Shown here: positions 33,972-54,061 of the stretch, one piece after another | Layout: every line of letters starts with the position of its first letter | How positions within the stretch are numbered: the stretch's first letter is position 1 | Made by a program: the position numbers and the translations under genes | Assembly: GCA_963798085.1 (NCBI GenBank) | Contig: CAWCRS010000002.1 | Location: forward strand, 256,001-320,000 | DNA from: an uncultured Gemmatimonadales bacterium | GTDB taxonomy: Bacteria; Gemmatimonadota; Gemmatimonadetes; Longimicrobiales; RSA9 | Reading direction: 5' to 3' | Length of the DNA: 64,000 bases | Notes under the pieces: generated by a model | What the model saw: the letters and a program-made list of their open reading frames with translations, nothing else | Databases searched by the model: none | Told to the model about the DNA's origin: nothing

Positions 33972-34105
33972 GGATACCTTCCTTCCGTGATCGCCTGGTG
34001 TCCGCTTGCGTTCAGGCCGGAAGAAGGTCTGTGATGTCACGGCGAACGTCGTCGGGTGGGAGTCCTCTCCCTTGCCGCGGACTGGAGGCGCCCCGTGGCG
34101 CACTG
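33972..34105 (-). promoter_or_regulatory. Structured 5' leader RNA, copy A (candidate translational cis-regulator)
   Basis: 5' hairpin GCGCC/GGCGC; GTCCGC(34082-34077)/GCGGAC(34005-34000) long-range stem; GGGAG/CTCCC hairpin; anti-SD ACCTTCTTCCG complementary to CGGAAGGAAGGT. Confidence 0.65.
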
Positions 34106-34111
34106 GCGGGC

Positions 34112-34140
34112 AATGTTGCGTGACCTCCGGCGACTGTCAA
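34112..34140 (-). promoter_or_regulatory. Sigma70-type promoter of the ankyrin-NTase-uvrA operon
   Basis: TTGACA-17 bp-AACATT. Confidence 0.55.
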
Positions 34141-34477
34141 CCAACGCAGGCGCACGCGGGCCGCGACCCCGTGCCCGGGCGGCCGGCGGAACCCGGCGGA
34201 GCGCCAGCGCAGGCAGTCCGACGGCGGCATGAGACGGTTTCGTCGCCTGCTACATACAATCGGGAAACACATCCAGCCTTTCCATCCCGGCCGCGGAAAC
34301 TCATGGTCCGCCGAGTGGTATCAGCGGTCCGCGTCGGCTTTTTTCTTGCATGGGCCGGCGGCAAGCGGCGGCAGACCCGCCCGTTGCGATTCCACCCCCG
34401 CGATCCGGCGATGATGCGGCCACCGATCCGGTGGGTTATCCTTACCTTAGCCACCAACTCATTGAGAGGAGACACCC

Positions 34478-35179
34478 ATGCGTCGTGTACTCGGTTCCGC
34501 GGTTGCACTTACCGCCGTCCTGCTGCTTCCACGAATGGTCGCTGCCCAGGGCGGGATGGATCAGGCCAAGAAGGTCGCGGGCGGCGGCATCTCCGTGGCC
34601 GGCTGGATGGGGATGGTCGATCCGACGGAGACCGGAATGGATGTGAGCGGCGCGAAGTTCGCCAAGGAAGGCGCCGGGTTCCACGTCACGACCGGTCCCG
34701 CAATCACGTACTGGAATCCCGCGAACAAGGCCGCCGGCGACTATACCGTGAAGGCCACGTTCAACGAGCCCAAGTACATGAACCTCAACACTCACCCGCA
34801 CCCGTACGGGATCGTGATCGGCGGGAACGACATGGGCACGCCCAACGCCACGTACCTGTACTGCGCGGCCTACGGCAACGGCAAGTTCATCATGCGCGGC
34901 TTCGGCCCCGCGGCGTTCGCGCTGAACGGCCGCATGGGCGAAGCGAATGATGCGGTGCACAAGGCGGCGGGGCCGGGCGAATCGGTCACGCAGGAAATTG
35001 CCGTGTCGGTCAAGGGCGACAAGGTGGAGTGTTCGGTCAACGGCACGGTCGTCGGCAGCTACGCCAAGTCCGATGTCGTGGGTGCCGGCAAGCTGAAGAG
35101 CACGGATGGCGTGTACGGCATCCGCTTCGCACACAACACGGAAGGCACGGTCTCCGGCTTCACGATGACGAAGAACTGA
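34478..35179 (+). CDS. Hypothetical secreted beta-sandwich protein
   Basis: GAGGAG RBS, signal peptide, strong codon bias; HPHPYG, GIRFAHN. Confidence 0.75.
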   Translation: MRRVLGSAVALTAVLLLPRMVAAQGGMDQAKKVAGGGISVAGWMGMVDPTETGMDVSGAKFAKEGAGFHVTTGPAITYWNPANKAAGDYTVKATFNEPKYMNLNTHPHPYGIVIGGNDMGTPNATYLYCAAYGNGKFIMRGFGPAAFALNGRMGEANDAVHKAAGPGESVTQEIAVSVKGDKVECSVNGTVVGSYAKSDVVGAGKLKSTDGVYGIRFAHNTEGTVSGFTMTKN

Positions 35180-35211
35180 CAGCGCATTAGCAGCGCTGCT
35201 CCGGCAGCTCG

Positions 35212-35253
35212 AACCCCGGCGTCATGCGGCATGGTCCGTATGGCGCCGGGGTT
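35212..35253. terminator. Long hairpin between convergent genes (likely bidirectional terminator)
   Basis: AACCCCGGCGTCATGCGG / CCGTATGGCGCCGGGGTT 18-bp stem with G-U pairs. Confidence 0.55.
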
Positions 35254-35287
35254 TCCGTATTCCGTCAGTGCGTATGCGCGCGGATCG

Positions 35288-36742
35288 TCAGCGCTGTGGC
35301 GGCGGCACCGTGACGGCCCAGAGTCCCTGATCGAGCTGCAGGATGTCCTGCGCATCGGCCGCGGTGAAATAGCCGAAGCCGCCGTCGCCCCAGGTCACGC
35401 CCCAGTTGTTGGCGAACTTGAAGCGTGACGTGGCCGGATCGTAGCCGACAATGGTGATCACCGTGCTGCCCAGCGTGGCCTGGTTCGCGCCGGCGGGCTT
35501 TACGAGCCCGGTACGGGTGGCGTCGTCGGTGCTCCACGCTTCGGTCGCAGTGGCCACGGCGAGCACCGGCGTCTTCCTGTCGAGTGTCGCAAGGATCGCG
35601 TCGAGGCCGGGGATCTGCGTCATGGTGGCCTTGTAGTCCGCGGCGGCGTTGTCGAGATCTCGCCAGGTGACGCCGGCGGGCAGACTGCGATTCAGTGCCC
35701 GGTACGGCCAAATCGATTCGGGCGGCGCGCCGAACTGCCGCGCGACGTAGATCGTGGTCTCGAGAAACGTGCCCTCGCCCGTGACTTCGTCGTGGCGCTT
35801 CGCCTTCTCGTAGATGTAGCGCATGGAGAGGCGCAGCGGGCGGCCCTGTGCCGAGAGCGAGGCATCCATCGCCGTGGCACACGCGGCCGCGGCCACCGTG
35901 CCTTCCTGACCGACATCCCTGACTTCGGCCCAGGGTGCGAGGTCGACCGCTCTGGGCGCTGCAACGATCAGCGAAACCGCACTGCCTCTGCGAATCGATG
36001 TCTGCGACGCAGGCTTCTGCTCGAGTACCCAACCCGGTGCTTGCTCGTTGGTCGCCTGTTGCGTGACGTCGCCCACAGCCAGGCCGACGCCGGCAAGGTC
36101 ACGCGTGGCGCGCTCGAGCGTCAGCCCGCTCACATTCGGCACGTTCACGCGCTGACTGCCTGCCCACGTGTAGACGGAGTAACCGCCGGCCGCCAGCGCG
36201 AGCGCCAGAACGACCGCAGCGGATCGCCAGTGGCTGCGCAGCCGTTCCGAGAGCGAGCCGCGCGCTCTGCGCCGCTTGATGTCCCGGCAGAGCCGGCCCA
36301 CATCGTCGTTCCATGAGCCGTCGCGCACTTCCGCCTGCTGCCGCTCGGCGAGAGCGCGGATGTCCTCGGGCAGATCCGCGGCGCCCGGCAATGCCGCACC
36401 GCCGACGAGGACGGGAATGACGAGAAGGCCGTTGGCGAGCGCGGCATGGATCTCGCCGCGCACCCAGTCATCCGCGTTGTCCAGACGACGCTGGCCCGCC
36501 GCATCCGTGAGTGTGGTCCAGTGCCTGCCGATCACGGCCAGCAGCACATCCGCCTGTCGCAGCTGCTGATTCAGCGTATCCGCGTAGTCGTCACCGCGCT
36601 GGATGTCGTCGACATCCATGAACACGGTGTCGGCGCCGAATACGCGGGAGAGATGATCGTAGAGACGGCCGGCGTGACCGGCCGAATCGTCGCGGCGGTA
36701 GCTGATGAAGATTCCGCTCACACTCGATCCGCGCGGTATCAC
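35288..36742 (-). CDS. TIR-TM-PASTA-papain(C1)-like fusion; peptidase apparently inactive
   Basis: IFISYRRDD...WVRGEI (TIR); TM; VPNVSGLT...QKPA (PASTA); VRDVGQEGTV, LSMRYIY, TIVGYD, NNWG...WGDGGFGY (C1). Confidence 0.82.
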   Translation of the reverse strand: MIPRGSSVSGIFISYRRDDSAGHAGRLYDHLSRVFGADTVFMDVDDIQRGDDYADTLNQQLRQADVLLAVIGRHWTTLTDAAGQRRLDNADDWVRGEIHAALANGLLVIPVLVGGAALPGAADLPEDIRALAERQQAEVRDGSWNDDVGRLCRDIKRRRARGSLSERLRSHWRSAAVVLALALAAGGYSVYTWAGSQRVNVPNVSGLTLERATRDLAGVGLAVGDVTQQATNEQAPGWVLEQKPASQTSIRRGSAVSLIVAAPRAVDLAPWAEVRDVGQEGTVAAAACATAMDASLSAQGRPLRLSMRYIYEKAKRHDEVTGEGTFLETTIYVARQFGAPPESIWPYRALNRSLPAGVTWRDLDNAAADYKATMTQIPGLDAILATLDRKTPVLAVATATEAWSTDDATRTGLVKPAGANQATLGSTVITIVGYDPATSRFKFANNWGVTWGDGGFGYFTAADAQDILQLDQGLWAVTVPPPQR

Positions 36743-37015
36743 CGTCTGCGGTGGCGGGCCTGCCGTTCGACACGCGACGCGTGGCTCGAAACAGCGGCAG
36801 ACGTTCGTGCGAGGATGGGCTGGCGGCCGGGCTGCGTCAAGATCCGAATCCCGCGGAGCCGTGCCTTCGGATCAGAGCTGGCTCGACGCATACCCGCTGG
36901 CTGGTGTGCGACGCGCGTCGTGGGCCGGTGGGCCGGCCTGCGGGCGCTTTGCCGCCGGTTGCCGCTTCGTCCGTTCGCCGGGAGCCTGCGCCCACGACGG
37001 CACGGGTGGACTGCA

Positions 37016-37882
37016 TTATTTCCCGGCTAACAGCTCGCGAGCCTGACTCAGCGACTGGCCCTGGCTGTAGATGTCTGCCCACACATTGCCGGTGTCCGCA
37101 ATGCGCCGCTCCAGGTTGCGCAGCGTGAACGTCTGCGGCGCGACTTCGCCGCTCTCCAGCTCCTCCCACGTGCACGGCGCAGAAATCGGTGCGCCGGGCT
37201 TCGCGCGTACCGTGTACGTGGCGGCGAACGTGGCGCTGTAATCGTTGCGGCCGGTGTCGACGAGGATGCGTCCGCCACGGTCCGCCTTGCTGAACTCCTG
37301 CGTCAGGTGCACGGGATCGCGCTGCACCATGGCGCGCCCCACCGTGTGTGCGAAACTCGAGACTTCGCCGGTGTGCGCGCTGCCATCGAGCGGAATCGCG
37401 ATGTGGTAGCCCTTCGAGCCCGACGTCTTAACCCAGCTGCGCAGGCCCAGCTCGGCGAGGAAGTCACGCAGGCCGAGCGCGGCGGCGCGCAGCACGGCGG
37501 GCTCGTCAACGAGCGGGTCGAGATCGAACACACAGATGTCGGGGTGCACGAGATCAGGTGCGCGTGACACCCACACGTGTGCTGTGATGCAGTTCTGGTT
37601 GGCGATCCAGAGCAGGCCGCGCGTGTCCGTAATGAGCGGATAGTGCACGATGCCGCGGTTGTGGTGCACTTCCACCCGCTCCAGCCATTCGGGGAAGCCC
37701 TTCTTCACATCCTTCTGGAAGAAGCCTTTCTCACCCATGCCGCGGTGGTAGCGCTCCATGGTCAGCGGCCGTGCGCGGATGTGCGGCAGCATGAGCGGCG
37801 CGATCATTTCGTAATACGCTGCCAGCTCGCCCTTGGTGATGCCGTCCTCGGGGAACATCACCTTGTCCGGGTGCGTGATCAC
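37016..37882 (-). CDS. ligD: LigD polymerase/primase domain protein (NHEJ)
   Basis: ITHPDKVMFP, TKGELAAYY, FDLDP, KTSGSKGYH, YTVRA. Confidence 0.92.
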   Translation of the reverse strand: MITHPDKVMFPEDGITKGELAAYYEMIAPLMLPHIRARPLTMERYHRGMGEKGFFQKDVKKGFPEWLERVEVHHNRGIVHYPLITDTRGLLWIANQNCITAHVWVSRAPDLVHPDICVFDLDPLVDEPAVLRAAALGLRDFLAELGLRSWVKTSGSKGYHIAIPLDGSAHTGEVSSFAHTVGRAMVQRDPVHLTQEFSKADRGGRILVDTGRNDYSATFAATYTVRAKPGAPISAPCTWEELESGEVAPQTFTLRNLERRIADTGNVWADIYSQGQSLSQARELLAGK

Positions 37883-37916
37883 GGAGTCTGTCTGAACCGT
37901 GTTGCTGCGGCTGGCC

Positions 37917-39404
37917 TCAACGGAAGGTCAGCCGCGAGAGGGTTTCTGCGCGAAGACCGGACCGCGTCTGGAAGTCCTGAATGCTGGCGAAGGCCTGCGC
38001 GTCACGGGCGCGCATCCAGCCAGTCACCTCGGCTTCGCTGATGCCCGGGACGAGGCGCATCACGCCTTCCTCTGCCGTGTTCAGGTCGAAGGAGAGCGGT
38101 TGCGCGTCACCGAACGCGACCAGCGTGACCGTAACGCCCGGCACTTCGACGCGAATCTGCGGACCGAGATTCTGGTAGAGCACACGCGGATCTCGTGCGA
38201 TCTCCGTCCGCCAGCGCGCACGCGCCGCTTCGATCGCCGTATTGCTTCGCTCGGTGAGATCGAGCCGCAGCGCTCCGAGGTAGTGGTCGCGCCACAGGGT
38301 GCGAGCCTGGCGATCGACGAACACGCCGCGACTCAGATCGCAGAGAAGATCGATGACCTCGTTCGATTCTGCCGGAAAGCGGCGAAGCCAGGCCTCGATG
38401 AACAGCAGCAGGAACGGGTCATCCGGCTTTCGTCTGCCGGGGCCGAGGATGTCGGACAGGGCAGTCAACACCCTCTGTTGCCGGTCGCGAATGATCTGCG
38501 GGGTCGGTGGATCCTGCCCGCGCACCAGCAGGCTGAAGAAGAAGCTGGCGTAGAAACCCTCGGATTGCAGCAGCTGATTGGCGTCGCGCAGGCTGGCGAA
38601 GTCGCGGCTCTTTTCCAGCTGCACGCGCAGATAGTCCGGCCCCTTCCAGGCAGGTGAAAACGCGAAATTGTTCTCGCGCACTTCGTAGTAGCGTGCTACT
38701 GTCTGTGAGAAGCTCAGCAGGTCGCCTGCCGGTCTGTGGAATTCGCCGAGCACGTCCGGAACGCCGAACAGGAACTTCTGATGATGGTACCGCTCCCGGA
38801 GGAACGGATCGGTGGCCAGATGCGCCTCGAGCGTTTCCAGATGAATCGCAAAGCCTTCGTCGAATGCAGTGCCGCGGTCCGTCAGCGCGGCCGTGGTGTG
38901 TGAAATAGCGGCGATCTCCGTCCTTGGAATGCCCTCACCGCCATTCAGCAGCGAGAGCACCACGTGACCGGTTTCGTGAAGGAATGTGGTAGTGAACGCC
39001 CAGTCCTGCGGTGCCAGCATGATGAAGGGCGTGCGTGCGTGATCACCGGGGTTGCGGTCATCCACGAGACGGAATCCCACCGCAGCCTGGTTGCCACCGG
39101 GCTTGAGCGCCACGAAGTAGACCGCGGAGTCTCCACTGCGGCCCTGCGTACTGAGGGCCCATGCCCTGGCGTACAGGTCGAGCGCCATACGCGCAGACTC
39201 ATTATTCAGCCATGCACCGAATGTTCGCAGCCGCGCAGCGTCGGTAACGCGTCGATAGGTCTGCGCACCCTGCACCGCGACGGTATCAGCTGGCTCGACA
39301 AACACGACGCGGACCTTGGCATCCTGGGCCTGTGCCGCCGAGCCCCAGAGCACCCACAGCAGCGGCAATGAACGGGCAATGCTGAAAGGAAACCTCGATC
39401 GCAT
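37917..39404 (-). CDS. Secreted hypothetical protein with HExxH motif and C-terminal HhH
   Basis: Signal peptide; FLHETGH, AFDEGFA; DLNTA...LVPGIS. Confidence 0.65.
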   Translation of the reverse strand: MRSRFPFSIARSLPLLWVLWGSAAQAQDAKVRVVFVEPADTVAVQGAQTYRRVTDAARLRTFGAWLNNESARMALDLYARAWALSTQGRSGDSAVYFVALKPGGNQAAVGFRLVDDRNPGDHARTPFIMLAPQDWAFTTTFLHETGHVVLSLLNGGEGIPRTEIAAISHTTAALTDRGTAFDEGFAIHLETLEAHLATDPFLRERYHHQKFLFGVPDVLGEFHRPAGDLLSFSQTVARYYEVRENNFAFSPAWKGPDYLRVQLEKSRDFASLRDANQLLQSEGFYASFFFSLLVRGQDPPTPQIIRDRQQRVLTALSDILGPGRRKPDDPFLLLFIEAWLRRFPAESNEVIDLLCDLSRGVFVDRQARTLWRDHYLGALRLDLTERSNTAIEAARARWRTEIARDPRVLYQNLGPQIRVEVPGVTVTLVAFGDAQPLSFDLNTAEEGVMRLVPGISEAEVTGWMRARDAQAFASIQDFQTRSGLRAETLSRLTFR

Positions 39405-39570
39405 GGTCCTGCCTCCGAACACCGGGCCTGCATTTCAGCCGCATGGAACATGCGTCGGCGCGTGCGCTCTGCGGAATGGGGCACATGTCCTGATATTGCG
39501 CGCCAGCGCGCCATGCCTATTGATGGGAGCGCCGCTGCACCGCTGTACCGCACCTGAAAAGTGACGTGCC

Positions 39571-40995
39571 ATGTCTCTCACCGCGATACTGCTGGCCCTG
39601 CTCGCGTGTCCACACCCGGGACCCGCAGGCCGGAATGCTGGCGGCGAAATGCAGGCCGCCGTCCCGGCCGGCGACACATTGCGGGCGCCCCCCGTTCTCG
39701 AGAACCAGTCGCGTGAGCCGCACACCGTGGAAGTCACGCTCACGGCGAAGCCCACGCGGCTCTCGCTGCTGCCCGGCGTGGAAACCGATGCCTACGCATA
39801 CAATGGCAGCATCCCGGGACCCACACTCGACGTGCACGAAGGCGATCGCGTTCTCATTCATTTCCGCAATGCATTGCCCGAGCAGACGACGGTGCACTGG
39901 CATGGTCTGCACATTCCGTGGGCGACCGACGGCAGTCCATTCAAGCCCATCCCGGCCGGTGCGCAGGCCGATCTCGAATTCACCATCCCAATGGGTACCG
40001 CGGGCACGTACTGGTACCATCCACACGCTCAGGCGCTTGCACGGTCGCAGATGGCAAAGGGACTGTTCGGCGCGATCATTGTGCGCGCGGCGGACGATCC
40101 GCTGCCTGCGATTCCCGAGAAGCTGCTGGTTCTGAGCGACAACCGTTTCCTGCCCGACGGGTCGATCGATCTGCCGGACCGGCAATCGCCGCAGGGAAAC
40201 GTGGATTTCGAGAACGGGCGCGAAGGCAATGTCGTGTTCGTGAACGGGCAGATCATGCCGGCGATTCGACTGCGGCCCGGCGAGACGCAGCGCTGGCGCG
40301 TGGTCAACGCGTCCTCTGCCCGTGTCTACCGTCTCGCGATTCCCGGTCACGAGATGCTGCACGTGGGCGGCGATGGTGGCCTCTTCGAGCGACCCGTAGC
40401 CGTCAAGGAGATCCTGATCGCAAATTCCGAGCGTGTCGAACTGCTGGTGCGCGGCACCGGAGCGGCAGGCAGCCAGACAGTACTGCAGGACCTGCCCTAC
40501 GACCGCTACATCCCGCAGACGCGCCCCGCTGACTGGGAGAGAACGAGCGACCTGCTGAGCCTTGAGTACACGGACGAACCGACTGTTCCGCCCGCCGCGA
40601 TACCGGCCACACTGCGTCGCGTGGAGTGGCTCGACACCACGTCGGTCACGACCCGGCGAGTCATGGTGCTTACGCAGGGTTTCATCAACAACAAGGCGAT
40701 GGACATGAACCGCGTCGATGAGCACGGCTCGCTCGGTTCGACAGAAATCTGGGACATCGAGAATCTCGTCGGCATGGATCATCCCTTCCACCTGCACGGG
40801 TTCCGCTTCCAGATACTGGATCGCAATGGTGTGCGCGAACCGTTTCCCAGCTGGGAGGACACGGTGAATGTGCCGAAGCACGAGTCTGCCCGGATCGTCG
40901 TACGGTTCGAGGACTACCCCGGGAAGTGGATGTTCCACTGCCACATCATGGACCACGAAGAGGGCGGCATGATGGGCATCCTCGAAATCACGTGA
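39571..40995 (+). CDS. Multicopper oxidase
   Basis: HWHG, WYHPH, HPFHLHG, HCHIMDHEEGGMM. Confidence 0.95.
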   Translation: MSLTAILLALLACPHPGPAGRNAGGEMQAAVPAGDTLRAPPVLENQSREPHTVEVTLTAKPTRLSLLPGVETDAYAYNGSIPGPTLDVHEGDRVLIHFRNALPEQTTVHWHGLHIPWATDGSPFKPIPAGAQADLEFTIPMGTAGTYWYHPHAQALARSQMAKGLFGAIIVRAADDPLPAIPEKLLVLSDNRFLPDGSIDLPDRQSPQGNVDFENGREGNVVFVNGQIMPAIRLRPGETQRWRVVNASSARVYRLAIPGHEMLHVGGDGGLFERPVAVKEILIANSERVELLVRGTGAAGSQTVLQDLPYDRYIPQTRPADWERTSDLLSLEYTDEPTVPPAAIPATLRRVEWLDTTSVTTRRVMVLTQGFINNKAMDMNRVDEHGSLGSTEIWDIENLVGMDHPFHLHGFRFQILDRNGVREPFPSWEDTVNVPKHESARIVVRFEDYPGKWMFHCHIMDHEEGGMMGILEIT

Positions 40996-41009
40996 AAAAG
41001 AGACGGGAC

Positions 41010-42413: not shown

Positions 42414-44903
42414 CTACACGCGCCGTTCGACCAGCTCGTTCCAGTCGCGGAAGCCTTCGGTCTCGGCCACCAGCTGGCGGGCACGCTCGAGGCCGAGCAC
42501 GAAACCCCCGTCAGCACCGTGGCGCAGCGCGAGCCGGTCGCGCACGCCCCTGCGCACCGCATCGACGTGATTGTAGCCGGTGTTCCAGGTGCGCAGGTCA
42601 ATGCCGTAGTGGTCGACGATCCGGCGCGCCGCGGCGTCGTCACCGTTGTCATGGGCGGCGACGAAGTCGTCCGCCAGCGCCGCACACTGCGCCAGCGTCG
42701 TCTCGGGTGGCAGGGTTGCGGTGGCTTCGTACGCGCGCAGCACATCGACAATACGCTGGTGGCCGCGGCGGGTGGCCCAGGCCATGGGCGTCGCCCACGG
42801 CGCATCGTCGGGCAGGCTCGTTCGGGCGCCGCGGCGCAGCAGGTATACGACCATGCGCAGCTTGCCGTGCCTTGCGGCATAGCCGAGCGGCGTGGACGAA
42901 TACTCGACATCGCGCACGTTCAGGTCGGCGCCGTGGTCCAGGAAGATGGCTGCGCGCTCAATGTCGCCATTCTGCGCGAAGCGGTGCAGCGGCGTGATGC
43001 GCAGCCAGTCCGGCCGGTTGGGATCCATGCCGTGCGCGAAGAGCAGCTCGTTCGCCGCGCGTGAGCGGCCGGCCACGGTCACGCGCTTCGGCAGGTCGGG
43101 CGCATAGCGCAGCACCAGGCGCAGGAACGGATCGTACCCGGCGGCATTGCCCAGGATGTCGGGATCGTCAGCCCGCGCCGGATTGGCGTCGAACACGGCC
43201 GCGGCCGTGACGAGATCGTCCTCGTGCGCCAGCAGCTGCACCTTGCGCGCCGCGCCGTACGACGCCAGCAGCTCGATCATGCGCTTGTCGCCGCGGCTCA
43301 TGGCAATGGTCAGCGTGTCCGCCGAGCTTTCTACCTCGACGTTCGCATACGCGCCGCGCTCGAGCAGCAGCTCCGCCACTTCGTAGTGCCCGTTGTAGAC
43401 GGCGGAGTAGAGGGCGATGCCGCGCGGTGCAATGTGCTCCTCGGGCAGGTTGGGGTCCGCGCCGTGGTCGAACAGCAGCCGCACGATCTCGAGGTGGCCC
43501 GCCGCCGCCGCATTGCGCAGCGGTGTGCCGGAACAGGCGTAGTAGGTGACGTATTCCGACGGCCTGTTGGCGAGTGAAGCGTCGCCTGCAAGCAGTTCCT
43601 GTACGCGCTCAATGTCGCCGATGTACGAGGCGGTGCAGATGTCGACATACGCGCCGCGGGAACGCAGGTGCTCGATGATCTGGCGCGGCGCCGTCGGATG
43701 GTCGTAGAGCCAGCCGCGGTAGGAGTAGTCGCCGTTGGCCAGCTGGATGGGCCGCGCCCCATCGGCCCGCTTCCCGTTGATGTCCGCGCCCCGTTCCAGC
43801 AGCAGGTCGATCATGGCGGGATTGCGCGTCATGGTCGCCCAGTGGATGGGCAGGTTGGTGGACTCGTCGGCGGCGTGGATCAGCTCGGGCTCTGCGTCCA
43901 GCAGCTGGCGCACCCTGTCCAGGTCGCGGGACCGGATGGCCTCGGCGATGGCGGCGCCGCGCGGCGAGAGGTGCATCGACTCCGCCAGCTTCGCCTCCAG
44001 CAGCTTCTCCATTTCCGTGAAGCCGCGCTCGCGCGCCTCCTCGAGCGGATTGCGGAACGGCTGCGCGCCATGGTCCAGCAGCCAGGCCGCGGCAGCGATC
44101 TGGTTCTCCTGCACGGCAAAGCCCAGCGCGGTGCGGTACTCGTACGCGCTGCGCAGCAGTGCCGGATCCTTCGCGACCAGGCGTTCGAGTGTCGCGATGT
44201 CACCGGTCATGGCAGCGCAGAACATCTCCCATACATCCACGCCCATGCCCGGCGACCAGAACAGCGGCTCGTTCTTCTTCAGCGCTTCCGGCCGGATGAG
44301 CAGTGCGACACGGTCGGCGAATGCCGGCCCGCTCAATGGCCTCGCCGCGTTCAGGTTTTCCTCAATGTCGCTCATGTGTTTCCTCAGCCGCTGTCTCGCC
44401 GAATACAGGCGAGTCTTCACGACATTCGCATTGACGTTCAGGAACTCGGCGATCGCGCTTTGCGAATGATCGCCCATGTAGTAGAGCAGCACGACCTGCT
44501 GCTCCGCTTCCGACAGTGTGCCGATCGCCGCACGCAGCGCGGCGCGCGTTTCCCGCACTTCCAGCGCCGCTTCCGGCGATGGCGCCGTCGAAGCGACATG
44601 CATGGCCGCATCCAGTGCGGTCACCGCGTGCTGCCGGCGCCGCGCGATGCGATCGCAGTGCTTGAACACGATGCTGCGGAACCACGCGGGGAACGCTGCG
44701 GGCTCGCGCAGTGCGCGCAGCTGGCGGTGCGCCTCGACGAACGCCTCCTGCGCCGCATCTTCCGCGAGATGGTAGTCGCCAAGAATCGACGTGGCATACG
44801 CCACTGCGATGTCCTGGAAGCTGCGCACCAGCTCGCCGAATGAGCGGCCGTCGCCCGCCTGCGCCGCGCGCACGAATGCCGTGATCTGCTCCCTGTCCGG
44901 CAA
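42414..44903 (-). CDS. ECF sigma-70 factor fused to ankyrin repeats and a C-terminal 'AE-GF-W' helical domain
   Basis: AGGAGG + TTG start; AEDAAQEAF, FPAWF, VKTRLYSARQRL (sigma2/sigma4); TPLHRFA, TPLGYAA ankyrin repeats; tail LERARQLVAETEGFRDWNEL. Confidence 0.88.
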   Translation of the reverse strand: MPDREQITAFVRAAQAGDGRSFGELVRSFQDIAVAYATSILGDYHLAEDAAQEAFVEAHRQLRALREPAAFPAWFRSIVFKHCDRIARRRQHAVTALDAAMHVASTAPSPEAALEVRETRAALRAAIGTLSEAEQQVVLLYYMGDHSQSAIAEFLNVNANVVKTRLYSARQRLRKHMSDIEENLNAARPLSGPAFADRVALLIRPEALKKNEPLFWSPGMGVDVWEMFCAAMTGDIATLERLVAKDPALLRSAYEYRTALGFAVQENQIAAAAWLLDHGAQPFRNPLEEARERGFTEMEKLLEAKLAESMHLSPRGAAIAEAIRSRDLDRVRQLLDAEPELIHAADESTNLPIHWATMTRNPAMIDLLLERGADINGKRADGARPIQLANGDYSYRGWLYDHPTAPRQIIEHLRSRGAYVDICTASYIGDIERVQELLAGDASLANRPSEYVTYYACSGTPLRNAAAAGHLEIVRLLFDHGADPNLPEEHIAPRGIALYSAVYNGHYEVAELLLERGAYANVEVESSADTLTIAMSRGDKRMIELLASYGAARKVQLLAHEDDLVTAAAVFDANPARADDPDILGNAAGYDPFLRLVLRYAPDLPKRVTVAGRSRAANELLFAHGMDPNRPDWLRITPLHRFAQNGDIERAAIFLDHGADLNVRDVEYSSTPLGYAARHGKLRMVVYLLRRGARTSLPDDAPWATPMAWATRRGHQRIVDVLRAYEATATLPPETTLAQCAALADDFVAAHDNGDDAAARRIVDHYGIDLRTWNTGYNHVDAVRRGVRDRLALRHGADGGFVLGLERARQLVAETEGFRDWNELVERRV

Positions 44904-44967
44904 TTGCCTCCTTCTGGTAGATGGACCCGGGCAGTGCTGCAAAGGTGTGAGGTGGCGGGCGGTGGAG

Positions 44968-45002
44968 CGAATGCTGGAACGAATGCTGGAACGAATGATG
45001 GA
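44968..45002. repeat. 12-bp tandem repeat x3 upstream of the sigma-ankyrin gene
   Basis: CGAATGCTGGAA CGAATGCTGGAA CGAATGATGGA. Confidence 0.8.
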
Positions 45003-45132
45003 GACCCGGCCGCAAGCGAACGATGGGCGCGAGCGCAATCGCGGAAGGGAAAGCGCGCGGCGCGAGTGCAGCAGGATGCGCTGACCCCGGGCGCGGGTCC
45101 CGGGGCCAGTGGAATCGGATGCGGTTACCCGA

Positions 45133-46452: not shown

Positions 46453-46462
46453 GTGAAATCCT

Positions 46463-46831
46463 TCAGGAGTTGCGGTGCGCCAGCGAAAGCTCTTCCGCCA
46501 CTGCTGACAATCTGTTATCCCGCGTCCACAGGCTGGCCGTGCCGTTCAGGGCAACGGCCGCGAGCAGATGGACATCGACCCAACCAATGCCACGACCCAT
46601 CAGCGCGTTCCGCTCGAGGTAGACCAGCGCTTCGTCATCCGTTGCGACGGGTGCCGCCGGAAGGCCGCGGATCAGGCCGAGCAGCTCGCGGCGGTTGCGC
46701 AGGTTGCCGCAGGCCAGTTCACCAAGGACGAACGGATGCATCAGGACCCGTCCCGCGTTCAGCTCGGCCGCGAGACCCGGCTCGCGGCCCCGCAGGTGAC
46801 CGATCCACACCGACGTGTCGACGAGAATCAT
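46463..46831 (-). CDS. vapC: VapC PIN-domain toxin
   Basis: MILVDTSVW, HPFVLGELACG, GIGWVDVHLLA, LWTRD. Confidence 0.93.
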   Translation of the reverse strand: MILVDTSVWIGHLRGREPGLAAELNAGRVLMHPFVLGELACGNLRNRRELLGLIRGLPAAPVATDDEALVYLERNALMGRGIGWVDVHLLAAVALNGTASLWTRDNRLSAVAEELSLAHRNS

Positions 46832-46835
46832 GACT

Positions 46836-47033
46836 TCACGCCGAACGGGCACGCCGTCGCGGCGGCGTAACCACCGCGGGCTCGCTGCCACCGAGGCGGG
46901 CCAGCTGGCGGGCACTCTCGCGCTCGATCAGCGCACGCAGCGCTTCGCGAACGAGCGCCGTCCGCTCCTTCATGCCCGTGAGCTTCTGCGCCTCGCGCAC
47001 CAGCTCATCATCCAGATTGATCGTCGTCCGCAT
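46836..47033 (-). CDS. vapB: VapB antitoxin
   Basis: MRTTINLDDELV...LVREALRALIERESARQLARLGGSEP; directly upstream of vapC. Confidence 0.9.
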   Translation of the reverse strand: MRTTINLDDELVREAQKLTGMKERTALVREALRALIERESARQLARLGGSEPAVVTPPRRRARSA

Positions 47034-47119
47034 GCGTTCCACCAGTTTCGAGTATGCATGGAATCTACACCATCTGGTGCCGGTACCCATGCCTTTGTGG
47101 GACTCAGACCGGGACGGAA

Positions 47120-47215
47120 CATGGAAACGGAGAGTGGACCGCCGCATGTCCTCGAGGTACTCCAGGCTCAGGTCGACATCCTCGCCGAGGATGCCCGCGT
47201 TGCGCGTGATGGAGG
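47120..47215 (-). pseudogene. Possible internal remnant of a type III restriction (Res) subunit
   Basis: ITRNAGILGEDVDLSLEYLEDMRRSTLRFH resembles, from recall, an internal segment of Res proteins partnered with this Mod type. Confidence 0.35.
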
Positions 47216-47303
47216 GGCTCCGATGCGGATGTGTTCTGGCAGGCTCGCCCAGCAGGGTCCGCGGCCTGGTGCAACGCGAGGGCCGTGCATCTCCACAAGC
47301 CCT

Positions 47304-48191: not shown

Positions 48192-48543
48192 GGCCCGGCT
48201 AACAGGGTGGATGCGTCGGCTTGCATGGTTGGTGGGCGAGCGGTGAGGTCTGTCGCAACCGCAGACCGGGCTCGAATCGGCCGTGTTTCCGGCGACGACG
48301 GGTGCCCGTTCTTCCGGCGGCAAGCCTACCGCCGGCTCCACCGAGCGTCAACACGGCTCAGGCGCGCGATTCATCACGGTTCCGGTCCCGTTCTTCCCGC
48401 GGCCCTTTCGTGGAGTCACGCAGCCACGCTCCGTGCCTGCCCGCCCGCAGGTTGCGTGGCGCCGGGCCGCGGCGTTACGTACGCTGGCATCCTGCACACA
48501 GCCAGGCGATGGCGCGAACGCACGCGGGGAATCCAGACTCAGC

Positions 48544-49656
48544 ATGAACCGGAACCGCAGTCCCGACCCACAGCGCATTGCGCTCAGGCCGCTCGCGCTG
48601 GGCGCGCTGCTCTTCCTGCTGGGAGCGATGGTCGGCATCGGTGTGCGCGACTTTCCCATGAAGTCGCGCACACCCATGGGCGGTTCACTGCGCCAGCTGC
48701 TGCTGATGACCGTGGGGCCGGATACGGTGAACCTGTATGTGGCCGTGCTCGCCGTCCCGTTCTTCGTCTGGGCCGCGCGCCGCTGGCCGGTCGCGCGACC
48801 CGTCTCGCGCAGAAACTTCCTCGTCCAGACGCTGCTGATCCTGCTCGTGGCGGGACTGGGCGTCGTCGCCTTCTATCTGGTCGTGGACGGACGCAACCCG
48901 GGCATGCGCGTGATGCCCGTGTTCTTCGCCACCTACCGCGCCGCCGCGACCCTTCCCGTGATCGCGGGTGTCGCCATTCTGGGGCAGGCCATCGAGCTGG
49001 GTACGCGGGCGCAGCGCAGTGCGCTGGATGCGGAGCGCCTGCGCGCCCGCCTGGCCGATGCCCGGCTGGCCACGCTCACCGCGCAGCTGCGCCCGCACTT
49101 CCTGTTCAACACGCTGCAGAACGTGTCCACGCTGATGTACGAACGCCCCGCGGATGCTGACGCGCTGTTAGCACACCTGGGCGAGCTGCTGCGCGCATCC
49201 TTCCGCTTTGCCGACACGCGCACCATTCCGCTGCACGAGGAGCTGCGCCTGGTGCGCGACTACATCGAGATTGCGCGCGTTCGTCATGGCGAGCGGCTCA
49301 GCTTCGAGCTGGATGTCGAGGACGCGGCGCTGGCCGAGGCCGTACCACCGTTCCTGCTGCAGCCCATTGTCGAGAATGCCATCGAGCACGGCCTCGACGA
49401 CGAGCTGGCGGGCGTCCACATCGCGATCCGCGCGCGTTTGGCTGCCGGTGCGCTCGCTGTCGCCGTGTCCGACAGCGGGCGCGGCCCCAATGCCGGCGCC
49501 GGCGATAACAGCGGTATCGGGCTGCGCAACACGCGCGAGCGGCTGGTCGAGACGTTCGGTGCGGCGGCCTCGCTCACCCTGCGGCCGCTGCCCGGTGGTG
49601 GCACGATCGTCGAGCTGCGCATACCGCCGCGCAATGCCGACGGAGGAAGCCGCTGA
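48544..49656 (+). CDS. LytS-type sensor histidine kinase
   Basis: QLRPHFLFNTL, LQPIVENAIEHG, GIGLRN. Confidence 0.92.
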   Translation: MNRNRSPDPQRIALRPLALGALLFLLGAMVGIGVRDFPMKSRTPMGGSLRQLLLMTVGPDTVNLYVAVLAVPFFVWAARRWPVARPVSRRNFLVQTLLILLVAGLGVVAFYLVVDGRNPGMRVMPVFFATYRAAATLPVIAGVAILGQAIELGTRAQRSALDAERLRARLADARLATLTAQLRPHFLFNTLQNVSTLMYERPADADALLAHLGELLRASFRFADTRTIPLHEELRLVRDYIEIARVRHGERLSFELDVEDAALAEAVPPFLLQPIVENAIEHGLDDELAGVHIAIRARLAAGALAVAVSDSGRGPNAGAGDNSGIGLRNTRERLVETFGAAASLTLRPLPGGGTIVELRIPPRNADGGSR

Positions 49657-50417
49657 GCGCGCGCGTCCTGATCGTCGACGACGAAGCCCTCGTGCGTCGT
49701 CGTATTCGCACGCTGCTGGAGGAGCGCGCTGACATCGTGGTGACCGGCGAGTGCGTGGATGGCCTCGATGCGATTCGCGCGATCCGGCAGGAGCGGCCGG
49801 ACATCGTGTTCCTCGACGTGCACATGCCCCGGCTGGATGGCTTCGGCGTGCTGGCCCATCTGCCTGCGCCCATCCGTCCGGTCTTCGTCTTCATCACTGC
49901 GTACGACGAGCACGCCATCCATGCCTTCGACGTGGGCGCCGCGGATTATGTACTCAAGCCGATTCGCCCGGACCGCTTCGCACTCGCGGTGGATCGCGCG
50001 CTGGGCCGGCTGGATGTGCTCCCCGCGGAGCGTGCCGCGCTGGACGCCGTGCTGCAGAATGCGCGGGCGCACGGCCGTGTGCTCGACCGCTTCGTCGTGG
50101 AACGGCGGGGCCGCATGCAGATACTGCCGGCAAGGTCGGTGCGCTGGCTGGAATCGGTGGGCAACTACGTGCGCGTGCACGTCGAGGATGGCACGTCACA
50201 CGTGGTGCGCACCACACTGCGCGCGCTGGCCGATCAGCTGGACCCGCAGCGCTTCGTGCGCATCCACCGCGCGACCATTGTGCAGGCCACGCGCGTGACG
50301 GCGCTCGAACCGCGCGGCCATGGCGATGCCACGGTCACGCTCGATGACGGCACGCAGCTCGCCGCCAGCCGGGGCCGCGTCGCCGCGCTCAAGGCGCTGG
50401 TTCCGCGCTTGCGCTGA
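49653..50417 (+). CDS. LytTR response regulator (apparent CTG start)
   Basis: VLIVDDE, FLDVHMP, TAYDE, DYVLKP, FVRIHRA. Confidence 0.9.
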   Translation: MSARVLIVDDEALVRRRIRTLLEERADIVVTGECVDGLDAIRAIRQERPDIVFLDVHMPRLDGFGVLAHLPAPIRPVFVFITAYDEHAIHAFDVGAADYVLKPIRPDRFALAVDRALGRLDVLPAERAALDAVLQNARAHGRVLDRFVVERRGRMQILPARSVRWLESVGNYVRVHVEDGTSHVVRTTLRALADQLDPQRFVRIHRATIVQATRVTALEPRGHGDATVTLDDGTQLAASRGRVAALKALVPRLR

Positions 50418-50453
50418 GTCCTGCCGAACCACAGCGCAGGCGACACTCCGCCG

Positions 50454-51317
50454 TCAACCTCCCTGCGCGCGCAGCCAGGCCGCGACCTCGTCCCGCTTCC
50501 CGTACTCGGCCCAGTCTAACGGCGTGCCAGCATGGGCCTGGTCGCGCGCATCCAGTCTGGCGCCAGCATCGACCAGCACGCGCACGGCATCCAGCGAGCC
50601 GGACCAGACCGCGTGGTGCAGCGGCGTTCCGTGCGCGTAGAGGTCCTCGCTGGGCGCGTTCACGTCCGCGCCCAGTGCCAGCAGGCGCCGGAGTGCTTCG
50701 GCGTTTCCGTTCAGCGCGGCCTGCACGAAGGCCATCTGGCGCTGGCGTGCGTTCGTGGTCTGCGCCAGGGCGGGCAGTGCATCCCACATTTCGAGGCTCG
50801 CCGCAGCAGCCAGCGTAAGCGGCGCGCCGCGCTCGAGCAGGTGCGCGGCCGCATCCCAATGCCCATTGACCAGCGCGGCATCAGGCGAGCCGTCGAGTGA
50901 CGCACCCGCGTCGACCAGCCCATCGATGAGGCCGATCTGCACGCCGGCTTCCCTCGCCACCCCCGACCATGCGACCAGCCGCAGCGTGTAATCGAGCTGC
51001 TCCTGCAGCGTGTCGACACCTGCGCGGCGGGCCGCTTCAATGAGGATGCGCGCGATCTGCGCAATGTTCGCTGGTAATGTGTTGTTGCGGACGGGATCTT
51101 CCGCCACGAACCAGAGCAGGTACGGCCGCGCGAAGAAGCCATCGAGTGCTTCCGCCACCTTGTCACGCAGCCAGGCCCCCGGCCGGTCCAGACGCGCGCC
51201 GAGCAGAACCGGATGCGCGGCCAGCATGCGCTCCAGCTCGGCCGTATTGCCGGCATCGATCGCGCCGACGGCCTCGCGGAAGAGTGCGTCGAGTCGGATT
51301 TCGTCGGTTCCCGGCAT
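50454..51317 (-). CDS. Ankyrin-repeat protein (no N-terminal helical domain)
   Basis: PYLLWFVAEDPVRN, LLALGADVN, TPLHHAV, TPLDWA. Confidence 0.85.
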   Translation of the reverse strand: MPGTDEIRLDALFREAVGAIDAGNTAELERMLAAHPVLLGARLDRPGAWLRDKVAEALDGFFARPYLLWFVAEDPVRNNTLPANIAQIARILIEAARRAGVDTLQEQLDYTLRLVAWSGVAREAGVQIGLIDGLVDAGASLDGSPDAALVNGHWDAAAHLLERGAPLTLAAAASLEMWDALPALAQTTNARQRQMAFVQAALNGNAEALRRLLALGADVNAPSEDLYAHGTPLHHAVWSGSLDAVRVLVDAGARLDARDQAHAGTPLDWAEYGKRDEVAAWLRAQGG

Positions 51318-51346
51318 CGGTTCCCTCCAGATGGGAATGCAGCCTG

Positions 51347-53158
51347 TCAGCGGTACCCGGCGGCCTGCAGCTCGAAGAGTTGCGCGTAACGGCCATTCGC
51401 TCTCAGCAGCTCCTCGTGCGAGCCCAGCTCGGTGACTCTGCCATCGCCGATCACCGCGATGCGGTCCGCGATGCGCACCGTCGAGAAGCGATGCGAGATC
51501 ACAATGCCAATGCGGCCGCGCAGATTCTGCTTGAGTTCCGCGAAGATGCCCGCCTCCGCTTCGGGATCGAGCGATGAGGTGGGCTCATCGAGGATCCAGA
51601 TGTCGGCGTCGCGGTACATCAGGCGGGCCAGCGCCAGCCGCTGCCATTCTCCGCCCGACAGGTCGTGTCCGCCCTCGAAGAGTCGGCCCACGCGCGAGTC
51701 CAGGCCCTTCGGCATCTTCTTCACCAGCCAGTCGCTGCGCGCATCGCGCAACGCGGCGAGCACGCGATCGTCCGCGACCACGCCATCAGGCCGGCCGATC
51801 ATCACGTTCTCGCGCACCGAAAGCTCGTAGCTCATGTAGTCCTGGAACAGCACGCCAATGCGGCGGCGCAGCGCGTGCGGATCCAGGTTGCGCACGTCTT
51901 CACCGCCCACGCGTATGCTGCCGTTGTCCGCATCGTAGAAGCGCAGCAGCAGCTTGACGAGCGTGCTCTTGCCCGCGCCATTCTCACCCACCAGCGCGAT
52001 CAGTTCGCCGCGTCGTATGTCGAGATTCAGACCGCGCAGTGCCGCTTCCGGCGTGCCCGGGTAGCTGAACGTGACGTCGTCGAACACAATGCTGTCGATG
52101 GTCGACGGCAGATCGTGCGCATGCGGCGGACTCGTCACCAGCGGCTCAATGGCCAGGAACGAGAAGTAGTCATCGAGGAACGTCGTGTGCTGATCGACAG
52201 CCACGAACGTGCTCGACAGATTGCCCAGTGTGCCTGACACCGACGTGAACGCGCCGATCACCAGCACCACACCACCCGGATCGATCTGCCCGGTCAGGCC
52301 ACGCGCGGCCACGAACAGGTACGCCAGCGCGAGGGTGGTGCCGGTCACGAGCCCGGTCAGGATCGAGATATTCGTGCCCGAGCGGTACATGCGCTCGCGC
52401 TCCGTGAAGAGCTGCTCCGTCAGGCAATGGTGTCTCCCCAGCAGGTACTCCGCCAGCACGTACGCGCGCAGCTCTTTCGTGTTGCGCGGCTGCACGAGCA
52501 GATCGCCCAGATAGTCGCGTTCGCGTTCTTCCGGCGTCTCCTTGTAGAAGAATGCGTACAGCTTCGCTGTCACCCGCCGCTCGAGCGTGAGCGAGATCAC
52601 GGCGGCGGCAAGGGCGAGGATGACGAGTACCCAGTGGAGACTGGCGAGCAGTGTCGCCATCAGCAGGATGGTAACAACGTTGTTAGACAGGCCCAGCACG
52701 GACCAGGTGAGGTCGCCGGGGCGCCAGGAAACATCGCGTTTGGCGCGGGCCAGCCGGTCGTGCCAGTCGGAATTGTCGAAGTGACCGAGGTCGACGCTCG
52801 CGGCCTTGGCCAGCAGCCGCCGCTCCGCCTCCAGCTGCACCCGCCGTACGAACAGGTTGCGCCCGTAGCCGGTGTATGCGCCCAGCGCGCGCTGCACACC
52901 AGCCGTGATCCACAGCCCAATGACGACCGGCAGAATGTCGCGCAGCGTGAGCGACTGCGCCCTCGCCTGGGCAATGCGATTCACGAGTTCCGCACCCAGC
53001 CAGACGGCGAGTGGCGTCGTCGCCGCACTCACGACACCCAGCAGTGTGAAGCGCACGAGTGCGCGCGGCAATGCCGCCCATGCGAGCGCCAGACCCTGCC
53101 GCAGGTTTTTCCGGACGCGGCGGGCGCGCCCCATGGCTGGCGGAGGAGCTTCTTCCAT
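51347..53158 (-). CDS. ABC transporter ATP-binding/permease
   Basis: TM domain; GENGAGKST, LSGGEWQR, ILDEPT, SHRFST. Confidence 0.93.
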   Translation of the reverse strand: MEEAPPPAMGRARRVRKNLRQGLALAWAALPRALVRFTLLGVVSAATTPLAVWLGAELVNRIAQARAQSLTLRDILPVVIGLWITAGVQRALGAYTGYGRNLFVRRVQLEAERRLLAKAASVDLGHFDNSDWHDRLARAKRDVSWRPGDLTWSVLGLSNNVVTILLMATLLASLHWVLVILALAAAVISLTLERRVTAKLYAFFYKETPEERERDYLGDLLVQPRNTKELRAYVLAEYLLGRHHCLTEQLFTERERMYRSGTNISILTGLVTGTTLALAYLFVAARGLTGQIDPGGVVLVIGAFTSVSGTLGNLSSTFVAVDQHTTFLDDYFSFLAIEPLVTSPPHAHDLPSTIDSIVFDDVTFSYPGTPEAALRGLNLDIRRGELIALVGENGAGKSTLVKLLLRFYDADNGSIRVGGEDVRNLDPHALRRRIGVLFQDYMSYELSVRENVMIGRPDGVVADDRVLAALRDARSDWLVKKMPKGLDSRVGRLFEGGHDLSGGEWQRLALARLMYRDADIWILDEPTSSLDPEAEAGIFAELKQNLRGRIGIVISHRFSTVRIADRIAVIGDGRVTELGSHEELLRANGRYAQLFELQAAGYR

Positions 53159-53200
53159 TCCGCAAAGGTACGGGAAGGCGCGCGTCCGGAAAACGTGCGC

Positions 53201-53602
53201 TCACAGCGCGCGCGTCCACTCCTGGCCGAATCCCAGAACGTGACCATCCGGATCGCGCACCGCGAATTCCTTCATGCCGTAGTGCTGGACGACAGGCGGG
53301 TACACCACCACCGCACCCTTCCCCGACAGCTCGGCGAAGAGCGTTTCCGCATCACGCACCCAGAAGAACACATCCCACGTGCCACCCTGCCGCTCGTTCG
53401 GGCAGATCAGGCCTGCCTCCGCGACACGCCGTAACATGATCGGCGATCCGTCCCGGCTGTACACCGCAAATTCCGGCGGCTCGCCCGCTGCATACTCGCA
53501 ACGAAACCCCAGCACTTCCGCGTAGTAGCGTCCCGTCGCCGCGACGTCCGGAACCGGAAAGTATGGCGCCGCACGAATGAAATCCGCCGAACCCGCCGAC
53601 AT
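53201..53602 (-). CDS. VOC/glyoxalase/bleomycin-resistance family protein
   Basis: YYAEVLGF, YGMKEFAVRDPDGHVLGFGQ. Confidence 0.88.
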   Translation of the reverse strand: MSAGSADFIRAAPYFPVPDVAATGRYYAEVLGFRCEYAAGEPPEFAVYSRDGSPIMLRRVAEAGLICPNERQGGTWDVFFWVRDAETLFAELSGKGAVVVYPPVVQHYGMKEFAVRDPDGHVLGFGQEWTRAL

Positions 53603-53894
53603 GCCGCACCTCCCACCCGGATGGCAAGCTGCTCTGTGCAGTCGCCAATCCTCAGACCCGGCCGCCACCACGCAAGCCGCCTGTGGCCGACAGCCGCCAC
53701 AAGCCCGGTCACGCGCTGCAATGTCCTGTTATTCAATCCGTTGAACATGCCCGGATCCGTTCCGTCGCGGAGCAACTGCGCGCAGTTGCAGGCAGGCGCA
53801 GCGAATCCGCCGGCTTCCGTTCTCGGTTCACCCCGTTCAGGGAAGGCTTCCGGTCCGAGAGCGAAGCGGCGACCAACGCGGCATGGCCCGGGCG

Positions 53895-53924
53895 TTGCCG
53901 GCAGGCCCGCTGCGCGACTATCTT
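53895..53924 (+). promoter_or_regulatory. Sigma70-type promoter of the second leader-ankyrin gene
   Basis: TTGCCG-18 bp-TATCTT. Confidence 0.5.
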
Positions 53925-53930
53925 GGCCGC

Positions 53931-54061
53931 AGGCGTGCAGGACGCCTCCCGTCCGCGGGCAGGACCGAGTCCACCTGTGCTGTGCGTTGTACGAACGGTT
54001 CGAACGAACCTCCTTTCGCCCGTCGCCAGCGGACCCGGGCATTCACCACAGGAGGCTCGCC
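53931..54061 (+). promoter_or_regulatory. Structured 5' leader RNA, copy B
   Basis: AGGCGT/ACGCCT hairpin; GTCCGC(53951-56)/GCGGAC(54029-34) stem; GGAC/GTCC hairpin; anti-SD CCTCCT(54009-14) complementary to AGGAGG(54050-55). Confidence 0.65.

Follow-up and report, generated by a model that had tools for sequence, protein, structure and literature searches.

Two pseudoknotted leader RNAs in a Gemmatimonadales genome belong to a widespread, uncatalogued RNA class linked to a small N-terminal protein domain

The stretch of DNA analysed here (64,000 nucleotides; hereafter the window) comes from an uncultured Gemmatimonadales bacterium (contig CAWCRS010000002.1, positions 256,001 to 320,000), whose genome of 6.2 Mb is assembled into 12 contigs. 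It carries two genes, called here A and B, each encoding a protein with ankyrin repeats and each preceded by a structured leader RNA. We find that leaders A and B belong to an RNA class that is real, widespread and uncatalogued, and that its specific candidate partner is a small helical domain at the N-terminus of the protein encoded immediately downstream. The features of both loci, with hairpins numbered P1 to P4, long-range helices labelled PKa and PKb, SD standing for the Shine-Dalgarno sequence and anti-SD for its complement, are as follows.

34135-34140, minus strand: -35 element TTGACA of leader A (sequence; position conserved in homologues; strict scan negative)
34112-34117, minus strand: weak -10 element of leader A, 17 nt past the -35, three of six consensus matches (sequence; comparative peak)
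33972-34105, minus strand: leader RNA A, whole (covariance model match of 102 bits; no Rfam match)
34088-34101, minus strand: hairpin P1 of A, whose loop 34095-34092 pairs with 34056-34053 to form PKa (mutual information, pair counts)
34075-34085, minus strand: P2 of A, two base pairs (34085-34084 with 34076-34075) enclosing GTCCGC, the 5' strand of PKb (mutual information, pair counts)
34053-34071, minus strand: hairpin P3 of A (34071-34058), a conserved A and the 3' strand of PKa (mutual information, pair counts, tree changes)
34018-34028, minus strand: anti-SD strand of P4a of A (folding, pairing energies, sequence)
33993-34017, minus strand: hairpin P4b of A (34017-34013 with 33997-33993), with GCGGAC, the 3' strand of PKb, in its loop (pair counts, tree changes)
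33976-33987, minus strand: SD-containing strand of P4a of A (sequence, pairing energies)
33747-33971, minus strand: N-terminal helical domain of gene A, four helices, AlphaFold2 pLDDT 90, homologous to the start of Glyoxalase_8 (profile comparison, AlphaFold2)
32196-33971, minus strand: coding sequence of gene A, 591 aa, domain plus ankyrin repeats (open reading frame, domain scan)
53895-53900, plus strand: -35-like element of leader B (sequence; strict scan negative)
53919-53924, plus strand: -10-like element of leader B, 18 nt past the -35 (sequence)
53931-54061, plus strand: leader RNA B, whole (covariance model match of 94 bits; no Rfam match)
53932-53946, plus strand: hairpin P1 of B, whose loop 53938-53941 pairs with 53974-53977 to form PKa (mutual information, pair counts)
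53948-53958, plus strand: P2 of B (53948-53949 with 53957-53958), enclosing GTCCGC (mutual information, pair counts)
53962-53977, plus strand: hairpin P3 of B (53962-53972) and the 3' strand of PKa (pair counts, sequence)
54009-54014, plus strand: anti-SD of B (sequence, pairing energies)
54018-54040, plus strand: hairpin P4b of B (54018-54022 with 54036-54040), with GCGGAC in its loop (pair counts, sequence)
54050-54055, plus strand: SD of B (sequence)
54062-55306, plus strand: coding sequence of gene B, 414 aa, N-terminal domain (54062-54292) plus ankyrin repeats (open reading frame, domain scan)

The two leaders had been noticed in an earlier reading of the window (the original prediction), and their described layout is correct. 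In leader A, GTCCGC (34082-34077) and GCGGAC (34005-34000) enclose 71 nt, with the ATG at 33971 following 28 nt on; in leader B the same elements (53951-53956 and 54029-54034) enclose 72 nt, with the ATG at 54062 following 27 nt on. The core common to A and B, CGCCTCCnGTCCGC, occurs within the window at these two places only. Both leaders begin, as read from the sequence, 7 nt past a -10-like hexamer. The sigma70-like promoters proposed for them gain support from homologues, 111 of 192 of which have TTG-N3-N16..19-NANNNT just upstream (shuffle mean 9.8, maximum 22), although a strict promoter scan returned no site at either leader. Given a sigma70-type promoter directly upstream of the leaders, we place the transcript start at P1. 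A terminator scan of leaders A and B found no sense-strand terminator between RNA and gene. In single-sequence folding, neither A nor B scored better than shuffles (z 0.00 and -0.47, respectively). Because a lone leader gives no folding signal and the strict promoter scan is negative, the case rests on comparison.

Mutual information among 95 leaders, selected by their downstream proteins, identified PKa as a pairing of the P1 loop with CCYG after P3, and P2 as a 2-bp stem closing the GTCCGC loop. PKb is the helix GUCCGC:GCGGAC; its GCGGAC strand stands in the loop of P4, the base of which pairs anti-SD with SD. The aligned sequences support an architecture in which a 5' H-type pseudoknot (P1/PKa), with the two hairpins P2 and P3 inserted, is connected by the kissing helix PKb to hairpin P4. 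The pairing of GTCCGC with GCGGAC had been recognized before and is real, but it is a kissing interaction between a small loop and the loop of P4, and the 5' H-type pseudoknot had been overlooked. In the same way, the pseudoknot-like sequestration of the ribosome-binding site (RBS) proposed earlier is right in that the SD is paired with the anti-SD, but this pairing is the nested base of P4 and not itself the pseudoknot.

A wider alignment does reveal covariation. Over 94 distinct rows, the 29 pairs of the six helices are paired in 90.6% of cases and 23 of them show double changes, a result reached by none of 500 shuffles; slid controls of the same pairs gave 43-54% pairing. PKa, P2 and PKb were not part of the model behind the alignment, yet PKa and P2 were discovered on that same alignment. 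PKb is paired in 99.8% of cases, with double changes in five of its six pairs, and its variants GTCCAC, GCCTGC, GTTCGC, GTCCGA and GCCCGA have matching partners. Mapped on the tree of downstream proteins, coincident changes number at least 10 at pair 19:63 (PKa), at least 11 at 48:56 (P3) and at least 12 at 153:173 (P4b), and one or two for five of the six PKb pairs. P1, placed by pairing, forms 4-8 pairs in 193 of 194 leaders. Loci L002, L004, L014, L015, L018, L020, L021, L023 and L024, from the unpublished genomes G015 and G016, are within alignments A1-A4 and model R1; they supply part of the covariation at 34:167, where L179 and L268 show changes too. Apparent covariation at columns 24:29 and 23:40 of alignment A4 was attributed to one subfamily being out of register by one base and was set aside.

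The claim that the anti-SD changes in step with the SD is borne out in the larger set of homologues. Over 186 leaders (8 long ones were left out), the pairing energy of an anti-SD is -13.5 kcal/mol with its own SD and -10.2 kcal/mol with those of others, the best of 5000 permutations reaching -10.8 kcal/mol. In L117, L126 and L127 an extra hairpin is present between P4b and the SD, and anti-SD:SD complementarity is kept.

Covarying helices and the absence of catalogued counterparts both support a structured cis-acting leader outside known families, as originally proposed. A cmscan search against Rfam 15 gave no match in the window at gathering score and only chance matches to A and B (E at least 1.5); likewise, 12 loci of the variant types described below had no Rfam match at E<=1. 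No description of the motif was found in the literature, in which the supplementary candidate lists of PMC11109978, PMC5737381 and PMC8632094 (hundreds of entries, unnamed) could hold an earlier mention. The words 'ankyrin' and 'glyoxalase' are absent from the 8 supplements of PMC2864571, and they were not found in the portions of main text searched among PMC11109978, PMC8632094, PMC5737381, PMC2864571, PMC10907184 and the preprint 10.64898/2026.09.15.751765.

Next we turn to the encoded proteins, which had been described as otherwise divergent. This was wrong: proteins A and B have in common an N-terminal helical domain of about 70 residues (29% identity), for which Pfam makes no call in either. 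AlphaFold2 gives confident models of the domain, one with four helices and one with three. Its profile matches 10,443 clusters at 50% identity. In 149 of the top 150 matches the domain begins no more than 25 residues from the N-terminus, and 103 of the 150 contain two to three tandem copies. The ankyrin-type subfamily has a mean net charge of +4. Among 23 members, nine match PF20066 (Glyoxalase_8) weakly (best E 4.5e-5) and eight match the NCBIfam entry PRK05973, and hhalign aligns the domain with Glyoxalase_8 N-termini over 53 columns (probability 96.8, E 2.6e-10). Such profile comparisons identify the domain as a homologue of the N-terminal part of Pfam Glyoxalase_8 and of PRK05973. These entries, which share the helical domain and have leaders of the same topology, are without RNA-related annotation, and the ankyrin-type domain differs from theirs in an extra helix. 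VIA fold searches with both domain models gave best Z values of 4.4 and 5.3 and no clear match, the latter value belonging to DUF1244 (3fyb; root-mean-square deviation 2.4 over 47). Foldseek with the domain models gave no clear match (best E 1.5), a PDB sequence search with the domain reached E 0.016 at best, and ESM Atlas returned clusters of hypothetical proteins only.

The leader and the domain go together closely, first of all in the host genome. Seven host genes encode the domain; a genome-wide search with the covariance model finds the leader before six of them at E<=1.1e-13, the next match having E 0.49. The seventh has a variant leader, read by eye and recognized only weakly by the model. 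The ten host ankyrin loci (a grouping of 20 Pfam matches) include four without the domain, and these have no leader; two of the four look operon-internal. Both genes A and B encode ankyrin proteins, as had been claimed, but the partner of the RNA is the N-terminal domain and not the ankyrin repeats. Ankyrin was rejected as partner on two grounds: the domain occurs without ankyrin being constant, and the four ankyrin loci just mentioned lack the leader.

The linkage extends far beyond the host. An exact DNA pattern of the motif has at least 120 matches in species genomes. Among the 120 listed, 110 precede the domain at E<1e-3, compared with 0 of 120 in an upstream control; inspection of the other ten revealed five chance matches, three at a contig edge and two before a broken domain gene. 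The motif occurs in about nine phyla, counted from 80 titled matches among those listed. We take these phyla to be Acidobacteriota, Gemmatimonadota, Actinomycetota, Verrucomicrobiota, Planctomycetota, Pseudomonadota, Armatimonadota, Latescibacterota and Chloroflexota. A scan of 151 host-phylum genomes, for which the model was partly trained on these loci and only 21-37 candidates per genome were scored, placed 68 of 73 RNA matches beside a domain match and assigned an RNA match to 68 of 75 domain genes (17 of 92 protein rows were dropped as second matches within one frame). The five unmatched RNAs are two before domain starts at contig ends, one before a decayed domain gene and two half-leaders; none is an intact leader before an unrelated gene. 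A protein-first count on a less dereplicated set gave 100 of 112. Among 69 downstream proteins over 140 aa, the 50 scanned for families comprise 44 ankyrin proteins, two leucine-rich repeat (LRR) proteins and four without a family. A scan for neighbours over 69 downstream frames revealed no shared gene or pathway.

Among cultured strains, the leader is visible in the records of Variovorax paradoxus, Methylosinus sp. C49 and Burkholderia cenocepacia, before a gene that is 'hypothetical' or unannotated; the RNA is also present in Streptomyces and Nonomuraea records. When three raw RNA runs were compared with the Burkholderia locus L035, no read fell on its leader or its gene, and the matches upstream were only partial and of low identity. 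These runs are uninformative about leader expression, because the organism sequenced probably lacks L035. No relative was confirmed on viral contigs.

Outside the ankyrin-type proteins, leaders of other sequence but similar shape are present. At 23 Glyoxalase_8 loci (two matches to the C-terminal half of the family left out), the 5' strand of the kissing helix lies before a GGTGAA anchor in 21 and has an exact downstream complement in 20. Nineteen aligned leaders of this type show double changes in all six PKa pairs, in a register read from the same sequences. A Glyoxalase_8-type model gave 16 matches in the 151 genomes, all upstream of PF20066, 13 of them training sequences and three held out. 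PRK05973 genes, coding for the domain joined to a DnaB/KaiC-like ATPase, have a third type of leader with a C-rich/G-rich kissing helix (L262 and L263, by eye). Fusions of the domain with VOC (L155, L264, L265) have a short leader, in which, by eye, a local hairpin replaces the kissing helix; in L155 and L264 a small hairpin abuts the SD. Since the short variants keep the 5' part alone, we regard the 5' part as the conserved recognition unit. The core sequence differs strongly among the ankyrin, Glyoxalase_8 and ATPase types, its topology being kept, and tracks the protein subfamily. Domains behind the leader subtypes are ankyrin, LRR, VOC, LON, ClpX zinc finger, DnaB/KaiC-like ATPase and PhyH. 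From their sequences and readable folds, these leaders are one RNA class comprising several subtypes of differing sequence and same topology.

Folding calculations were made for the RBS. In a nested model of 194 leaders, the SD window is unpaired with a probability of 0.25, versus 0.44 when the anti-SD is shuffled. The average cost of opening the RBS is 10.8 kcal/mol when the 5' part is free and 13.8 when it is locked; shuffling the 5' part gives 12.0, and 30 background genes give 8.7. Locking raises the cost in 147 of 186 leaders, leader A among those following the trend. The model thus weakly suggests that folding of the 5' part sets an off-switch.

Several known systems invite comparison. 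Leaders of ribosomal protein genes, such as the pseudoknot of rpsO bound by S15, are autogenous protein-binding elements. Proteins regulating their own expression through structure of the 5' untranslated region form an accepted class according to PMC11109978, where 'protein-binding candidates' is a category, and the Chlorobi-RRM motif (RF01697), listed in PMC2864571, is of this kind. The present leaders resemble such elements in standing consistently before genes of one protein domain, in having a pseudoknot near the RBS and in the likely negative feedback; they differ in that the domain is outside known RNA-binding families, is joined to many unrelated C-termini, has up to seven paralogues per genome and comes with an RNA that Rfam does not match. 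In the env8-type cobalamin riboswitch, according to PMC10907184, the kissing loop L5-L13 docks on the RBS hairpin. Here too a folded 5' domain docks by a kissing helix on a downstream hairpin controlling the RBS. Unlike that riboswitch, however, our leaders have an H-type pseudoknot core instead of a four-way junction, an SD in the stem base instead of the kissing loop, no Rfam cobalamin match and no B12 genes, and the downstream genes code for domain-ankyrin fusions. ANTAR is a small helical domain attached to diverse partners and paired with a twin-hairpin leader RNA that gates expression. The fusion of a small helical domain to diverse partners, combined with a leader RNA motif, is common to both systems; ours differs by a double pseudoknot in place of twin hairpins, by having no leader terminator, by the N-terminal position of the domain and by the lack of a Pfam ANTAR match (ANTAR is absent among the families matched at E<=1 by the 23 members).

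What could such an arrangement be for? The reading we prefer, to which we assign a probability of roughly 0.6, is a portable cassette for translational autorepression, in which the domain would bind its own leader and lock the fold that hides the SD. Its parts would be a sigma70-type promoter, the folded leader RNA and the small basic helical domain at the N-terminus of the protein. The 5' part of the leader is predicted to adopt a compact pseudoknot built from P1 and PKa, in which P2 and P3 are the insertions. When in excess, the N-terminal domain would bind this fold; the folded 5' part would then dock via the kissing helix onto P4, the anti-SD:SD base would be closed and translation would fall. 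Without protein, G-rich 5' strands may compete for the anti-SD, so that the RBS would open more easily, and the variable C-terminal domains might tune binding. The domain is favoured as the binder because the RNA is strictly tied to it across different C-termini, phyla and RNA sequences. The original prediction left open whether the leaders act as riboswitches or bind a protein; the evidence now leans to protein binding, since the RNA is tied to one N-terminal domain and not to ankyrin or a pathway.

A number of observations weigh against autorepression by the domain. Neither Pfam nor NCBIfam matches the domain to any known RNA-binding family, domains of the Glyoxalase_8 type carry almost no net charge (mean +1.2), and seven of the 75 domain genes in the 151 genomes have no RNA match. 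The short variant L265 is without an SD-like sequence. The energy effect of locking is modest, comes from a calculation that ignores pseudoknots and is reversed in 24 of 186 leaders, where the cost is lower; leader B itself behaves oppositely, its opening cost going from 9.7 to 6.0 kcal/mol when the 5' part is locked. A cognate anti-SD beats the SD of the nearest neighbour in only 106 of 186 cases (22 ties, 58 losses). Being physically linked, the promoter, leader and first codons could likewise stay together through domain shuffling. Finally, core nucleotides, paired and unpaired, are near-invariant across about nine phyla, which would also fit a small-molecule pocket.

This last point leads to a different explanation, namely a new riboswitch class in which a small molecule or ion would be the ligand of the 5' pseudoknot and docking on P4 would again go through the kissing helix; the domain would then be a passenger, or would sense the same signal itself. 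The compact double pseudoknot is aptamer-like and lies beside a separate expression hairpin, and its 5' part stands alone in short variants. Riboswitches, however, are usually spread over unrelated genes that serve one pathway. Here every intact leader (among pattern matches listed and in the 151 genomes) precedes a gene with the domain, the genes behind the leaders have no common pathway, and the core sequence changes with the protein subfamily as topology stays. We consider a riboswitch unlikely, in spite of the docking precedent that cobalamin riboswitches provide (PMC10907184). Two further explanations seem to us still less probable, and about equally so. One would see a stable RNA-protein particle, in which the leader or a processed piece of it serves as cofactor or antitoxin-like inhibitor of the C-terminal effector. 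It would account for the one-to-one link of RNA and domain, for the frequent tandem copies of the domain (103 of the top 150 matches) and for a pseudoknotted RNA before a single gene. Type III toxin-antitoxin systems, the model for it, place tandem RNA repeats and then a terminator ahead of the gene, whereas each gene here has a single covariance model match, A and B have no terminator, the anti-SD:SD pairing is conserved, and the C-terminal domains include plain repeats and metabolic folds, not nucleases. The other would need no factor at all: the leader would be a constitutive translational damper, a thermosensor or a cotranscriptional folding timer, and the domain, passively linked, would have another job. 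Indeed, P4 would be expected to conceal the SD even when the 5' part is free, as the opening cost above background and the lowered SD accessibility given above indicate, but this does not explain why the 5' part has a conserved tertiary fold and invariant nucleotides, or why short variants that lack the kissing helix or the SD still retain it.

If autorepression by the domain is the right reading, it may be part of something wider, which we put forward as a tentative idea with the odds somewhat against it. An unrecognised superfamily of RNA-binding domains, together with its cognate double-pseudoknot RNA, would form a portable control module on unrelated proteins; paralogues sharing an RNA core would cross-regulate as one regulon, and C-terminal ankyrin, LRR, VOC, LON, zinc-finger and ATPase sensors would release repression, making a one-component, RNA-level signalling system parallel to ANTAR. 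Structured bacterial RNAs this widespread and complex are rarely found outside Rfam, and the candidate partner is a small, soluble, named domain. Should it bind the leader, thousands of 'ankyrin', 'glyoxalase' and 'helicase' proteins would gain an N-terminal function, and a new RNA-binding fold as well as a compact, transferable feedback part would be at hand; should it not, the leader would be a strong candidate for an orphan riboswitch, and one that cultured strains carry.

Some further observations concern individual copies. About 150 kb of contig C2 (approximately 240000-390000) hold nine of the ten host ankyrin loci and six of the seven domain genes. The seventh paralogue (L027, contig C2 239551-239950), like L198, has a divergent domain without ankyrin or a Pfam family, and leaders of the L027/L198 type have a kissing helix with two compensatory changes. 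At L026 (contig C2 322000-326300) two leader-plus-gene units stand in tandem, the first encoding domain, ankyrin and glyoxalase. L025 (contig C2 from 375635) has an intact leader before a gene split over three frames by two frameshifts, being either a pseudogene or an assembly error; similar frame breaks occur at several loci of metagenome-assembled genomes. Decayed copies include a leader with an internal deletion (L231), half-leaders joined to unrelated frames (L272, L273) and a half-leader with a domain remnant (L274).

As for neighbouring genes in the window, the stop of gene A and the start of a nucleotidyltransferase frame overlap, with a UvrA-like ATPase coming next (28227-32203, minus strand), and the stop of gene B overlaps a cupin frame (55303-55851, plus strand). 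Judged from these overlaps, translational coupling is possible. Neither the nucleotidyltransferase/UvrA-like nor the cupin neighbours are conserved elsewhere. The gene at 42414-45038 (minus strand) joins regions 2 and 4 of an ECF-type sigma factor to ankyrin repeats and has neither the domain nor the leader. Upstream of leader A, a fusion of TIR, PASTA and papain-like peptidase (35288-36742, minus strand) is a possible defence protein. Other genes of the region encode a LigD primase-polymerase (37016-37882), an SMC-like ATPase (25213-27687), a PIN domain (46463-46915) and a LytTR response regulator (49692-50417).

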